A DNA stretch of 64,000 nucleotides from the NCBI GenBank assembly GCA_963749085.1, contig CAVVLG010000002.1:445863-509862 (forward strand), given 5' to 3'. The stretch is from Candidatus Adlerbacteria bacterium. Its GTDB lineage: Bacteria; Patescibacteriota; Minisyncoccia; Phycocordibacterales; SBAW01. Below, piece by piece: positions 1 to 46,017 of the stretch (the first letter of the stretch is position 1; every line of letters starts with the position of its first letter). Under the pieces are notes generated by a model, which worked only from the letters and a program-made list of their open reading frames with translations, did not search any database and was not told where the DNA came from. A program made the translations under genes and the position numbers.

Positions 1-398
1 CAGCAGCTTCGGCTAACTGACAATTTGTAACTTCGTGTGCATCAAGTGCACTATAACCGCCTTACAACCCCCTAGATGTACTAGATCCTACACACGACAT
101 TGCTGCCATGCACAGAACCTAGTTTCTAGAGTTTGGGCTTTTTCGCGTTCGCTCGCCGCTACTAACGAAATACTTATTAGTCTCTTTTCCTCCAGGTACT
201 GAGATGTTTCACTTCCCTGGGTTTGCTTCTTTCTTGCGAAAGATAATGGAAATTTCTTTCCAATGAGTTTCCTCATTCGGACATCTCCGGATCGAAGGTT
301 GCTTGGCACCTCCCCGGAGCGTATCGCCGCCACGCCGCGTCCTTCATCGCCTTTTAAAGCCTAGGCATCCACCATACGCCCTTATTTGTTCCTTCTCC
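1..398 (-). rRNA. rrl: 23S rRNA, 5' portion (continues beyond window start)
   Basis: Reverse complement contains GGTGGATGCCTAGGC...GGCGATGAAGGACGCG and GGAAGTGAAACATCTCAGTACC, conserved 23S 5'-domain motifs. No 16S rRNA or tRNA within 700 bp upstream. Confidence 0.85.
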
Positions 399-40661: not shown

Positions 40662-40790
40662 TATGCAGATAAAAGATAAGGTGGCGGTGGTAACGGGTGC
40701 ATCCGGAGGTATAGGACTGGCGATGGCACGGGAACTGGCAAAGCGTGGCGCACAACTAGAGTCTGAGGTTGCGGAAGCACACATGTAAAG
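40662..40790 (+). pseudogene. Remnant of a short-chain dehydrogenase/reductase gene (N-terminal 42 codons only)
   Basis: MQIKDKVAVVTGASGGIGLAMARELAKRGAQLE... (TGxxxGxG Rossmann motif) followed by a stop; marks the edge of the GC-rich islet. Confidence 0.6.
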
Positions 40791-41068
40791 CGGGGCGGCG
40801 TAACGGAGGTGGTATCTCCCACCTTCATTGACATCTCATACTGCTTTGTATATTATTCAACTATATGGTTGAACATAATGCCAAATTATCCTATCAGATC
40901 CTGAGTACATGGCGGGGATTAAAGAGAAGTTGACACTTATTACCACCCTTTCAAATACAGAAGCCGCCCATTAAAGAGCGGCTTTTAGTTTGCGCGTTCT
41001 GTTCCGAGGTGCGCTAACCCGGGTGGTTCGTAACGACCTTGCGGTCTCCCACCAGACGCCGAAGGGGC

Positions 41069-41257
41069 TTAGCCCTTCTTCGGCGGACGGGGCTTGGTAG
41101 CGCCCGTCGAGCCAGTGTTTGCACCGGCCATGTTTCTCACCTCCTTTCTGGGTTGAGTTGCGGAATCCTTGGGACGGCGTGGTGTGGTTGCACCTGCCGA
41201 ACCTGTATTTGCTCCAGTGGCATGGGCGCCAACAGAGCCCGTGTTCGCTCCAGACAT
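41069..41257 (-). CDS. Small repeat peptide (62 aa) with three GANTGSxGA repeats separated by Pro/Lys/Arg-rich segments
   Basis: MSGANTGSVGAHATGANTGSAGATTPRRPKDSATQPRKEVRNMAGANTGSTGATKPRPPKKG. RBS AAAGGAAA 7 nt upstream of the ATG. The three DNA repeats differ mainly at synonymous positions, implying selection on the peptide. Directly downstream of the radical-SAM gene. Confidence 0.6.
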   Translation of the reverse strand: MSGANTGSVGAHATGANTGSAGATTPRRPKDSATQPRKEVRNMAGANTGSTGATKPRPPKKG

Positions 41258-41485
41258 GAGGTTTCCTTTCACAAAGATCTTCACACAAGGGACTCCCAAA
41301 CCGTTCTAGGAATCCCATAGTGTGCCGGAAAGAAGTTCCGGCGGCTTGTCACTTTTATATTCCGTCCGACAAACCAAACGGAGATAGATTTTGTTTTTAT
41401 TTCTGTTGCCAAGTTGGATATCAGCCAACTCCGAATCCGCAGCTGTGTCCTGTCACTTCCGCATATCGCGTTGTGATCTTTAGGA

Positions 41486-42730
41486 CTATGCAACCGCTTT
41501 TTCATTCCCCTGGCTCCGTTCTTTCCGACCATTAAGTTTGCCGGTTAAGAACCGCTGCACAGTCGCACGCTCGGCGTTGAGACAGTCTCTCCCGATAGCC
41601 TTCCACCACGTCTTAGCGGCTTCGACATATCGAGAAGAAACGTCCAACTCCTGTGACACTGGCGCGACGTTGAAGTGGGAGATGTCTTGTCCCATCTGAT
41701 CCACACCGGCTTGGAGTTCATCCAGCCTGTGATGGATACAGAAAGGCAGACGCCACCAACTATCAGCATCGACTGCCAATGTTTCGTTGACTTGCAGAGA
41801 CTTCGGATAGAAGTAGAGCGGGACTCCGATATCGAGCACGATGGCGTTGTACGTCACCCGTGCCTTCATCAGAGCTTTCCGCGCTGTCTCCTTTCCGAGA
41901 ATCTCAAGCAGCCAAACGAAGTCCGGTGTGGAGTAAGTCCGCAAGAATACGGGCTTCTCCTTCCGAACCGACAAGAGTTGTTCCAATGCAGAGTCGAGCG
42001 CTCGCTTACTTGCTCGCATATGCTCGAGTCCTGGCCTCAACGACATAGTCGTGAGATGCCATTCATCGACGAGGGGCATGACGGTTTCAGCCGTCTCCCG
42101 CACACATGAGTAGTTGAGCGAGGTGAGCGTATAGAGGGAGGTCAGCTTGCCCGTCGGAGTTAAAATCCGTCGCGCATGCTTCATTCCGTCCATCGCCCAC
42201 GTCCAAGCTTGTTTGCTTGAACGCTGTGCATTGTGGATTGCGGGTGTCCCGTCGACCGATACATCAAGTGCATCGACCGCAAGACCTTCCCGCTCACAGA
42301 GCGATAGCAAGGCTGGCTGAGTGTAAGTCCCATTGTTAATGAGAGATACACCAAACCCTGCCTGCTTGATCGCTGCGAGGACTGGCACTTGGGACTTGAG
42401 CAGTTGCCTGCCCTCGTGCACCAAGGTCCGAGGTCCACAGAGTTGCTGAAAGCGCGTCCGCGCCTTCGCACCTCCTGTGAGCTGCCGAAGCATGGAGAGC
42501 ATTGTCTCCACACTTGGCTGTTCGAGTTGGCCTTTCGGCCCCTCGAACGGGAAGATGCAGTGTTGGCACTGCACCGCGCAACCACCGCGTACGATCCAGG
42601 AAAGTAGGGGTGGAATTTCCCGCTGCAATAGCAGAGGGATTTTCTCGCTCCTGTCCTCTCCAAGAATCGCGTGACTCCGCCAGGAGTCGATTGCCGCCGC
42701 GTCGGCGGGTAGCTTGGCCCTTGCTGTCAT
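41486..42730 (-). CDS. Radical SAM enzyme (CX3CX2C at residues about 51-58; no SPASM Cys cluster)
   Basis: 414 aa; GGCAVQCQHC motif; AGGAGG RBS; local GC clearly higher than neighbouring genes. Confidence 0.8.
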   Translation of the reverse strand: MTARAKLPADAAAIDSWRSHAILGEDRSEKIPLLLQREIPPLLSWIVRGGCAVQCQHCIFPFEGPKGQLEQPSVETMLSMLRQLTGGAKARTRFQQLCGPRTLVHEGRQLLKSQVPVLAAIKQAGFGVSLINNGTYTQPALLSLCEREGLAVDALDVSVDGTPAIHNAQRSSKQAWTWAMDGMKHARRILTPTGKLTSLYTLTSLNYSCVRETAETVMPLVDEWHLTTMSLRPGLEHMRASKRALDSALEQLLSVRKEKPVFLRTYSTPDFVWLLEILGKETARKALMKARVTYNAIVLDIGVPLYFYPKSLQVNETLAVDADSWWRLPFCIHHRLDELQAGVDQMGQDISHFNVAPVSQELDVSSRYVEAAKTWWKAIGRDCLNAERATVQRFLTGKLNGRKERSQGNEKAVA

Positions 42731-42929
42731 GGCAGCCTCCTGGGGTTGGGTTGAGGGGGTTTACAAGGTACAGAATAACTGCGCAATATTATGAGTGATT
42801 TAGCAAGAGTAGTCCAAAATCCTGTCTATACTGAGTAATAAAAAGCCTTATTTGTAGGCTTATAAAGATTATAAATAGTTTGTTGTCAAAACTATTGACA
42901 GAAATAGAGTTTGGCCCTATACTGGAGCT

Positions 42930-43667
42930 ATGCCTAATCAAGCAAATACCCTTCAAAAGCTAGGTTTGAGCGATAAAGAAAGCCGGGTTTACCTGGGGAT
43001 TCTCACCCTTGGCCAAGGGTCAGCCAATGCCATAGCGCGTGCCGCAGGGCTAAAACGCCCTACTACTTATGTCGTCCTTGAAGATCTCCGTAAGCGGGGA
43101 CTGGTATTGAAAATGCCCGGTTCTAAAAAACAGATGTTTAGCGCTCGTTCGCCAGAGGAGCTCGTCTATGAAATGAAGAAAAATGTAGCTGAGGCTGAAC
43201 ATGCCCTGCCGGAGTTGATGAACGCATATAGCAGCAACACACCGCATGTTCGCACGATTCACTTCGAAGGCTTGGCGGGTATGCGGGAGGCATTGTGGTA
43301 TCGCATCGAAACACTCAAGGATAAAGAAATAACTGCTTTCTACGGCAGCGCGGAGGAGGCAAGCCCCGAGCTTGTTGCTCTGTTCCATGAATGGAATGAA
43401 AAGCTTGCCAAGCAGGGTACTAAAGTTAAATCGCTCGTACCAGATAATAAGAGCTTGAAAGAATTTAGAGAGAAAGATTTGGCCTATGGTTTTTTGCCTA
43501 AAATCCTTCCTGCCTCAATGTATACATCGGAGGTATCTATAGACATAACGGATAACTTCGTACGTATTCTCATGTTTCAAGAACAGCAGGCGACTATAAT
43601 TGAAAACCCGAAAGTTGCTAAAGCCATGCGCGAAATATTTGAAATCATATGGGAAGGCAAAAAGTAA
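42930..43667 (+). CDS. TrmB-family transcriptional regulator
   Basis: N-terminal HTH LGLSDKESRVYLGILTLGQGSANAIARAAGLKRPTTYVVLEDLRKRGLV plus C-terminal TrmB-like effector domain; divergent from the radical-SAM gene. Confidence 0.8.
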   Translation: MPNQANTLQKLGLSDKESRVYLGILTLGQGSANAIARAAGLKRPTTYVVLEDLRKRGLVLKMPGSKKQMFSARSPEELVYEMKKNVAEAEHALPELMNAYSSNTPHVRTIHFEGLAGMREALWYRIETLKDKEITAFYGSAEEASPELVALFHEWNEKLAKQGTKVKSLVPDNKSLKEFREKDLAYGFLPKILPASMYTSEVSIDITDNFVRILMFQEQQATIIENPKVAKAMREIFEIIWEGKK

Positions 43668-43735
43668 ATTGCTTCAAGGTTCGATTCCCGTCACCCCATC
43701 GTCAAAACGACGCCTTAAACAAAGGCTCGAAAAAT

Positions 43736-45157: not shown

Positions 45158-45847
45158 TCACTCATCAAATACCACGAGCGTACTGGTGTCCAAATTGTAT
45201 TGAGCCCCGCCGTAAAGATTTGCATCTTCTTTTTGAGGTAGGATTTTCTTTTTCCATTGGTAGATGTCTGAGAGAAGAGGCTCCCCTGGGTAAGCGATGA
45301 GACGCCAAGCATCCGTGCGGACAAGCGTTCTCGGTAGCTCGACCAGCTTCTGTCTTAAGATGTGAGCCACTGCTATTTCTTCTACCAGGAAATTAGCATT
45401 TGCCTCAGTGGGCTCTCTCCCGTCAGCGTCTTTGGATAGACTATCCTTAAATGTCGCGTCCTCTGCCTCAAGCTTTTTTAAGAGGTCGAAGCATTCCTTG
45501 AATTGAGGGGAGTTTACCATCACATAGTCTATGGGTAGATAGTGAATGGCGTTGGGGATGAACTGTTTCCTGCTTTCAATCAGATGACGTAAGGCGGAGA
45601 CGTGATTGAGTATCTGCTGATTGGTTTTCTTCCTGTTTTCAGAAGATACTTCATCGGAGTTGAAATAGAGACCATTGGTGTACAGAAAGACCACATCATT
45701 GGAGAACGTTTCTATCTTTTGTAGAAACTTGCTCAACACTTCATAACAAAACTGGGGTGTCTGGCCTTTTGCTAAACGGCTCATGGAAAGGGGTAAAATG
45801 AGATAGCCGTCTTCTTGAATCCTGTTGATATCGAATCCCGATTTCAT
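45158..45847 (-). CDS. Hypothetical protein
   Basis: 229-aa ORF without recognisable motifs; ends 5 nt from repeat copy 2. Confidence 0.5.
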   Translation of the reverse strand: MKSGFDINRIQEDGYLILPLSMSRLAKGQTPQFCYEVLSKFLQKIETFSNDVVFLYTNGLYFNSDEVSSENRKKTNQQILNHVSALRHLIESRKQFIPNAIHYLPIDYVMVNSPQFKECFDLLKKLEAEDATFKDSLSKDADGREPTEANANFLVEEIAVAHILRQKLVELPRTLVRTDAWRLIAYPGEPLLSDIYQWKKKILPQKEDANLYGGAQYNLDTSTLVVFDE

Positions 45848-45944
45848 TGCTTGAAATTATATCTTACTTCTTGAGAGCGGCGCCCAGTTCTAATTTTCAC
45901 TAGGGTAGTAAAATCACCCTTGAAAAATAAAGTCCAAAAACCTG

Positions 45945-46017
45945 GGCGGCTACAGGGAATCGAACCCTGATCGAGAGCTCCACAAGCTCCAGTGTTAACC
46001 GTTACACCATAGCCGCC
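45945..46017 (-). tRNA. tRNA-His (anticodon GTG) with encoded G-1, no encoded CCA
   Basis: Reverse complement folds as g-GCGGCTA tg GTGT aacggtta ACAC t GGAGC ttGTGga GCTCT cgat CAGGG ttcgatt CCCTG TAGCCGC c; G-1:C73 pair typical of tRNA-His. Confidence 0.85.

Follow-up and report, generated by a model that had tools for sequence, protein, structure and literature searches.

A SPASM-less radical-SAM enzyme family linked to tiny GANTGS-motif peptide genes in CPR/Patescibacteria: a candidate RiPP-like system

The 64,000-nucleotide stretch of DNA analysed here (the window), from a Candidatus Adlerbacteria bacterium, encodes a radical S-adenosylmethionine (SAM) enzyme, a short repeat-bearing peptide and a divergently transcribed regulator of the TrmB family. 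Do these genes belong together and, if so, on what does the enzyme act? An earlier interpretation made from the DNA letters (the sequence-only reading) had proposed a pairing resembling those that make peptides built by the ribosome and altered after translation (RiPPs). Comparison with related loci indicates that the window holds one copy of a three-part cassette of the Candidate Phyla Radiation (CPR)/Patescibacteria, consisting of the radical-SAM gene, 1-4 tiny genes and the divergent TrmB regulator. We give a probability of roughly 0.6 to the mini-peptides being the substrates of the enzyme in a RiPP-like system. The principal components in the window, with the basis for each in parentheses, are as follows.

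41486-42730, minus strand: radical-SAM enzyme of 414 amino acids (aa); its family lacks SPASM, is uncharacterised and occurs only in CPR/Patescibacteria (open reading frame, ORF)
42736-42741, minus strand: AGGAGG ribosome-binding site of the radical-SAM gene, 5 nt upstream of the ATG (direct reading)
41069-41257, minus strand: 62-aa ORF with three GANTGSxG motifs, MSGANTGSVGAHATGANTGSAGATT...MAGANTGSTGATKPRPPKKG (ORF, motif copies, homologous mini-ORFs)
41069-41131, minus strand: nested 20-aa mini-gene, MAGANTGSTGATKPRPPKKG (own AAAGGAGGTGA ribosome-binding site at 41137-41147)
42930-43667, plus strand: divergent TrmB-family regulator of 245 aa, with winged helix, coiled coil and PLD-like effector domain (PF01978)

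The 62-aa ORF (complete translation: MSGANTGSVGAHATGANTGSAGATTPRRPKDSATQPRKEVRNMAGANTGSTGATKPRPPKKG) contains zero Cys and starts 228 nt past the stop codon of the radical-SAM gene. Its motif copies lie at 41251-41228, 41215-41192 and 41125-41102, and in the six core codons they differ pairwise at 4-5 codons, all synonymously, in keeping with the three GANTGSxGA repeats and mostly synonymous differences described earlier. The sequence-only reading also gave the ORF its own ribosome-binding site about 230 bp downstream of the enzyme gene; the distance holds, but the ATG of the ORF has only a weak GAAAGGAAA site. The strong one, AAAGGAGGTGA, stands at the third repeat, followed by five nucleotides and an in-frame ATG (41129-41131), and the residues RKEVRNM within the ORF are a translated Shine-Dalgarno sequence. 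Because the third repeat has this strong site and ATG of its own, the ORF looks like two mini-genes fused in frame, of 42 and 20 codons. Locus L001 shows the same in-frame fusion layout.

Related loci were found by scanning an alignment of the enzyme against a collection of species-representative genomes, and the 20 loci obtained were inspected in six frames. A mini-ORF with the motif adjoins the enzyme gene in 17 of the 20. The exceptions are L003, which ends at a contig edge so that the flank is missing, and the two most distant loci, L019 and L020, in which none was seen. The pairing persists to about 26% enzyme identity, and two of seven distant representatives keep the peptide (L034, E 2e-53, with MAAANTGSGGQNGSPVPVTR; L039, E 2e-31, with two MAAANTGSKGG... 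genes), whereas no peptide was seen in the available DNA of the remaining five, most of them on short contigs. Almost all related loci thus hold a homolog of the small ORF, conserved at the amino-acid level, so that the absence of homologs, which by the sequence-only reading would have made the pairing coincidental, does not apply.

The mini-ORFs have the consensus [M]-[A/S]-G-A-N-T-G-S-x-G and mostly a strong ribosome-binding site. In the relatives they are 11-47 aa long, and the motif is followed by nothing, by a single Lys, or by a Pro/Lys/Arg-rich tail. Examples are MAGANTGSAGVGKPRRPKKGKK (L004), MSGANTGSAGTQQNPRPAKPIKRKKTKK (L007), MSGANTGSKGSRGGANTGSVGS (L013), MGGANTGSTGK (L011, L012) and MSGASTGSTGK (L009). 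Basic Pro-rich tails are absent from Moraniibacteria-type loci, so the tails are optional. Most peptide genes lie directly past the enzyme stop codon, those of L006, L016 and L018 being upstream of the enzyme gene; since either position occurs, it is the linkage that is conserved, and not the gene order. Copy number varies (1-3 motifs per ORF, 1-4 ORFs per locus), and several paralogous mini-genes can share a locus (four in L009, three in L016). Those of L009 (7095-10680), dispersed over 3.5 kb downstream of the radical-SAM gene, end in ...GASTGSAGK (an Asn-to-Ser variant) and are interleaved with other genes, one of them encoding a second helix-turn-helix protein.

Motif statistics were taken from 41 motif copies and 31 peptides. 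The residues T, G and S are invariant in 40-41 of the 41 copies, the final G is found in 39 and Ala in 36. Asn is also present in 36, with Ser in the remaining five. The residue after Met is always small, hence removal of the initiator Met is probable. One Cys and six aromatic residues (the latter across five peptides) were counted in the 31 peptides, all outside the motif. The motif begins at residue 3 and the shortest precursors have 11 aa; with the motif at the very N-terminus, the precursors have no leader peptide. The Shine-Dalgarno-ATG-xGANTGS layout is present in 15 of the 26 motif copies counted for it across loci. Each Gly position is encoded by three or four different codons, and Ser by both TCN and AGY, while the residues stay fixed, so selection acts on the peptide sequence rather than on a nucleic-acid element, be it RNA or DNA. 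This codon-level conservation in related loci, a mark of purifying selection on the peptide, bears out the earlier view that the ORF is under selection and is not a shadow ORF. Glycyl-radical, P-loop and 4-methylideneimidazole-5-one (MIO)-like readings of the motif were dropped, as the patterns mismatch and nothing was in support.

Assuming typical residue frequencies, we estimate that the ~190 kb of related loci, translated in six frames, would contain about 0.02 chance occurrences of GANTGS. The motif was seen dozens of times; in every case it adjoined the enzyme gene or shared its locus, the extra L009 copies lying up to 3.5 kb downstream. For the reverse search, a metagenome collection was scanned with the DNA pattern GGTGA-N3-6-ATG-NNN-GANTGS. 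This gave 11 matches, of which seven immediately follow an enzyme homolog, the co-occurrence that the sequence-only reading had proposed to look for, and one (L030) adjoins a TrmB homolog. The other three have no adjacent enzyme or TrmB homolog and unrelated downstream sequence; they look like chance matches, at about the number expected. The linkage of enzyme and motif holds both ways. In L030 (1398-3292, on the 322-kb contig Ga0172380_10000027), the TrmB homolog and the peptide (MAGANTGSGGKGKNF...) are separated not by the radical-SAM gene but by a 137-aa ORF that contains Cys and matches no Pfam family.

The mini-ORFs are almost never called as genes. A protein search of 5.8 billion sequences with the 62-aa peptide returned three, namely the ORF itself and two relatives, and no curated family in Pfam, NCBIfam or PADLOC matched any of five peptides. 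Viral contigs gave 0 matches to the DNA pattern. The string "GANTGS" occurs in 0 papers, and no description of the system was found in the literature searched on CPR, radical SAM, RiPPs and leaderless precursors.

The enzyme gene has the CX3CX2C motif and the strong AGGAGG site reported earlier. The cluster Cys (C51-x3-C55-x2-C58) are invariant in both sets of homologs aligned (26 and 15), in which no Cys outside CX3CX2C is conserved. The radical-SAM superfamily profile (PF04055) matches barely above its cut-off (30.3 versus 29.5 bits), and the fold is a partial TIM barrel. Because only the three cluster-ligand Cys are invariant, an auxiliary SPASM/twitch cluster is lacking. The C-terminal 193 aa have no Pfam match to a SPASM domain even at E = 10, the C-terminal ~190 aa belong to no Pfam family, and no profile for a RiPP recognition element (RRE) matched the enzyme. 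In the AlphaFold model, which is confident (predicted local distance difference test, pLDDT, 88), only ~25 residues of helix precede the radical-SAM core. Given the lack of an auxiliary cluster and of Cys or aromatic residues in the peptide core, thioether and cyclophane chemistry are excluded, in line with the earlier opinion that a Cys-free peptide and an enzyme without a SPASM cluster made thioether chemistry unlikely.

Nor does the enzyme belong to a curated NCBIfam family. The best match is TIGR04103, at 26.4 bits versus a cut-off of 725; the cut-offs of the matched families are 131-725, and every match covers the core only (about residues 40-230). A housekeeping radical-SAM identity (HemW, BioB, MqnE, MoaA etc.), which according to the sequence-only reading would point to a coincidental pairing, was ruled out, since only far sub-threshold core matches appear at NCBIfam E <= 1. 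The curated viperin model was likewise not matched (NF038283, 18.4 bits versus a cut-off of 180); the PADLOC match to pVip reached 19 bits in the core region only, and Pfam, NCBIfam and PADLOC returned nothing for the enzyme or its C-terminal domain beyond PF04055 and such sub-threshold core matches. In structure, the core comes nearest to the peptide-modifying radical-SAM enzymes SkfB, SuiB, anSME, ChlB, PqqE and CteB, with BlsE, viperin, MoaA and DesII also among the closest folds, and anSME is the sole sequence-level PDB match of the family profile (E 0.005).

A word-indexed search gave 57 enzyme homologs, and all source names given are of CPR/Patescibacteria groups (e.g., Paceibacterota, Nomurabacteria). 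An exhaustive profile search of 1.84 billion representatives yielded 73 cluster representatives at E <= 1e-30, beyond which the weaker matches align with the radical-SAM core alone. As judged from these searches, the family is small and sharply bounded. No homologs were found in phage and plasmid collections. The window enzyme has a 13-aa insertion, GAKARTRFQQLCG (residues ~87-100), and a basic C-terminal extension of ~15-20 aa, TGKLNGRKERSQGNEKAVA (residues 395-414), both of low pLDDT; the extension is shared with the closest relatives (P0002, P0006) and absent in other homologs. In L012 (5809-7131), no stop codon separates the radical-SAM ORF from MGGANTGSTGK, and the reading frame continues across the Shine-Dalgarno sequence into the peptide; this could be a natural enzyme-peptide fusion, a coincidence of frame or an assembly error. 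Two tandem radical-SAM paralogs adjoin a Y1 (IS200-type) transposase gene in L037 (218-2280) and L038 (1-2021).

The regulator and the noncoding elements around the operon complete the cassette. In the window these elements are:

42788-42816, minus strand: promoter-like site TGGACT-17-CATAAT upstream of the radical-SAM gene (consensus scan and intergenic comparison; a consensus match only)
42884-42900, no strand assigned: operator-like palindrome TGTCAATAGTTTTGACA overlapping the -35 element of the TrmB promoter (scan and intergenic comparison)
41389-41445, minus strand: conserved RNA hairpin between the radical-SAM and peptide genes, with TCGGAG, a stem-loop and then CTTGGCAACAGAA (copies, covariation)
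40961-40984, minus strand: intrinsic-terminator-like hairpin closing the radical-SAM-peptide transcription unit (scan)

The regulator matches PF01978 over residues 8-76 at 55.6 bits (cut-off 25.6), which shows a TrmB-type winged helix-turn-helix and supports the family named in the sequence-only reading, and its C-terminal part is of the TrmB effector type, predicted to be a TrmB-like small-ligand domain of PLD fold. It is present, nearly always divergent, in 18 of 21 loci, and the enzyme in 21 of 21. The box (A/T)GTCAATA-N4-TGA(C/T)(A/G)A, i.e., GTCA-N9-TGA(C/T), lies ~30 nt upstream of the regulator start in all 16 divergent TrmB-radical-SAM intergenic regions compared (among L001-L020), and the palindrome is likely the operator for the regulator. 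A second similar box occurs near the radical-SAM promoter in L006 and L020. The promoter and 5' untranslated region of the radical-SAM gene (~90 nt, ~42745-42835, minus strand, containing TTTTGGACTACTCTTGCTAAATCACTCATAATATTGCGCAG) is nearly identical between the window and L002, whose enzymes are 56-60% identical; this noncoding stretch is thus more conserved than the coding sequence.

The RNA hairpin stands before and after each peptide gene and is confined to the clade nearest the window. Its 14 copies flank the peptide genes of the window, L001 (7145-7200 and 7485-7540), L002 (four), L006 (four) and L031 (three). The stem has 4-6 bp, three pairs of which covary. A covariance model found no other copies in 331 kb, and neither hairpin nor locus has an Rfam match. 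The hairpin could be a processing site, a stability site or a protein-binding site. A hairpin similar to the terminator-like one of the window, followed by a T-run, was seen by eye directly 3' of the peptide genes in L004, L005, L007-L010, L013 and L017.

What, then, does the enzyme act on? A gene-encoded short precursor is linked to and conserved with the enzyme, as in RiPP systems. Variable motif copy number fits a substrate, as do the internal repeats, the paralogous mini-genes, the L012 read-through and the peptide maturases that are the nearest folds, and we infer from these features that the mini-peptides are modified by the enzyme. It would recognise the octapeptide motif directly, without leader or RRE. 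Reductive cleavage of SAM would give a 5'-deoxyadenosyl radical that may abstract hydrogen from one residue of the invariant Thr-Gly-Ser. The outcome would probably be epimerisation or rearrangement (redox-neutral), dehydrogenation, or a C-O, C-N or C-C cross-link among Asn, Thr and Ser; oxidation of Ser or Thr of the anSME type is a further candidate. By binding the GTCA-N9-TGAC box of the divergent promoter region, the regulator would probably control the radical-SAM-peptide operon.

Several observations weigh against the peptides being substrates. Most RiPP maturases require a leader and an RRE, and we found neither, the motif standing at residue 3 of the precursor and no RRE profile matching. 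Clustering of all ORFs across the 21 loci revealed no other conserved neighbour (protease, transporter, immunity gene or second enzyme). No peptide was detected in the DNA of the related loci L019, L020 and L037/L038, and the L030 peptide adjoins TrmB with no radical-SAM gene within the 3.6 kb examined.

Some of the same absences could be read differently. Like viperin, BlsE, DesII and MoaA, the enzyme might act on a small molecule, for instance a sugar or nucleotide, with the GANTGS micro-protein as an accessory partner or regulator, e.g., a modulator of TrmB. Those four enzymes are among its closest folds, the pVip and viperin profiles match weakly (18-19 bits), and RRE, leader, protease and exporter were all not found; however, a viperin score of 18 bits is far from the cut-off of 180, the tandem and internal repetition of the 8-residue motif and its 1-4 copies point to a substrate more than to a stoichiometric partner, and a peptide of 11 aa rich in Gly, Ser and Thr would hardly fold as a subunit. 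We consider a small-molecule substrate unlikely, and slightly more so a third possibility, in which the peptide is a sacrificial scaffold, as for pyrroloquinoline quinone (PQQ) and mycofactocin, from which, after radical chemistry on Asn-Thr-Gly-Ser, housekeeping peptidases excise a small cofactor or signal that the TrmB effector domain senses. Precursors down to 11 aa with dispensable tails and only the octapeptide conserved would suit a scaffold, as would the predicted small-ligand domain of the regulator and the lack of an exporter among the conserved neighbours. PQQ and mycofactocin systems, though, need several further genes, whereas this cassette has no conserved peptidase or second tailoring enzyme, and a scaffold leaves the repeated motifs and the basic tails unexplained.

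That there is no peptide at all, the mini-ORFs being chance or shadow frames or a conserved DNA or RNA element that happens to lie beside the enzyme gene, is highly improbable. It would account for gene callers almost never annotating the mini-ORFs, and there is a genuine conserved RNA hairpin in the same spacer. Yet it is refuted at the codon level, where the amino acids stay fixed although third positions are free to change and Ser is encoded by TCN as well as AGY; besides, most copies have a strong Shine-Dalgarno sequence and a properly spaced ATG, a motif expected ~0.02 times is found in 17 of 20 loci, and the hairpin is a separate element of one clade only. We retain the mini-peptides as the probable substrates of the enzyme.

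A radical-SAM/peptide pairing as such is a known type of system. New here, in that the libraries and papers searched did not show them, are the enzyme family with its missing auxiliary cluster, the motif, leaderless precursors of 11 aa, the linkage to TrmB and the occurrence in CPR-type genomes. The SPASM/twitch maturases (SkfB, SuiB, anSME, CteB, PqqE, ChlB) share with the cassette an enzyme gene beside a short peptide gene, and include, in anSME, the only PDB sequence match. The present enzyme differs in having no auxiliary-cluster Cys, no RRE, no leader on its peptide and a C-terminal 190 aa without a Pfam family; its NCBIfam scores are far below cut-off, and Cys, Trp, Tyr, Phe and His are all missing from the motif. 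PoyD and OspD represent radical-SAM peptide epimerases without SPASM. Like the present enzyme, these and EpeE/YydG are radical-SAM proteins; they modify residues that are small or aliphatic in ribosomal peptides, and their redox-neutral chemistry is compatible with having no auxiliary cluster. However, no sequence-family relation was detected, the proteusin substrates have long leaders, and the enzyme described here lacks a conserved Cys as hydrogen donor.

Bottromycin derives from an N-terminal core with a follower peptide, and biarylitides from 5-aa precursors modified by a P450 (PMC12951456). Very short precursors and an N-terminal core are common to these and to the cassette, in which the optional C-terminal tail could act as a follower. 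Here, though, the enzyme is a radical-SAM protein and not a P450 or YcaO, the core consists of Gly, Ala, Asn, Thr and Ser only, and there are no further tailoring genes. Streptococcal RaS-RiPPs are made by Rgg/SHP-controlled radical-SAM peptide operons (PMC13361665). The likeness lies in a dedicated transcription factor linked to a radical-SAM and short-peptide operon, and the differences in a TrmB-type regulator instead of Rgg, an enzyme without SPASM, no transporter and CPR hosts. From the archaeal sugar-sensing TrmB/TrmBL regulators, with which it shares the PF01978 winged helix, the regulator is set apart by its score against the NCBIfam TrmB equivalog (36 versus 650 bits) and by its dedication to the radical-SAM/peptide operon.

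The cassette is bounded in the window by two gene remnants, both as described in the sequence-only reading:

40663-40788, plus strand: truncated short-chain dehydrogenase/reductase (SDR) gene, a 41-aa N-terminal fragment with TGxxxGxG (ORF)
43678-43698, plus strand: orphan tRNA 3'-end fragment GGTTCGATTCCCGTCACCCCA (unique within the window)

The tRNA-His gene of the window (45944-46016) has a different 3' end from this fragment. Related loci share no further neighbours around the cassette, which, with the bracketing tRNA fragment and truncated SDR gene, is compatible with movement of the cassette between genomic sites. In the viral, phage and plasmid collections searched, nothing pointed to an origin from a phage or plasmid. 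The GC-rich islet of the sequence-only reading does not stand out: GC is 0.56 for the radical-SAM gene, 0.60 for the peptide and 0.46 for the TrmB gene (window mean 0.497), while the ordinary neighbours NusG and SIMPL have 0.559 and 0.545 and other 2-kb bins reach 0.568. Horizontal transfer on the grounds of GC content was rejected, as the values are inside the normal range of the window. Adjoining the tRNA-His gene is a 229-aa ORF (45158-45847, minus strand) of no Pfam family, with weak sub-threshold similarity (E 1.6e-4) to the archaeosine radical-SAM protein RaSEA. The edge of the window (1-395, minus strand) holds the 5' end of a gene for bacterial 23S rRNA (Rfam, 220.9 bits).

Much new enzymology comes from radical-SAM/peptide pairs. 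With no Cys or aromatic residue in the core and no auxiliary cluster in the enzyme, no characterised cross-linking chemistry (thioether, cyclophane, Lys-Trp) applies, so any modification would be a new mechanism or at least a new enzyme solution. It is simple to test, with one enzyme and a synthetic substrate of 11-20 aa. Conserved genes of 11 codons escape standard gene callers and thus mark a blind spot in annotation. Most CPR genes have no known function, and RiPP systems were only recently reported in these bacteria, as graspetides (PMC8939145). We tentatively suggest, at odds somewhat short of even, that the cassette may make a natural product or cofactor from a ribosomal peptide, of a class not recognised before and so far confined to CPR-type bacteria. 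In it, a radical-SAM enzyme free of an auxiliary cluster would modify leaderless precursors of down to 11 aa, conserved in A-N-T-G-S-x-G alone, without sulfur or aromatic chemistry, perhaps by rearranging the backbone or a side chain or by cross-linking within Asn-Thr-Gly-Ser, and the product would be sensed by the dedicated TrmB regulator or used in episymbiosis.

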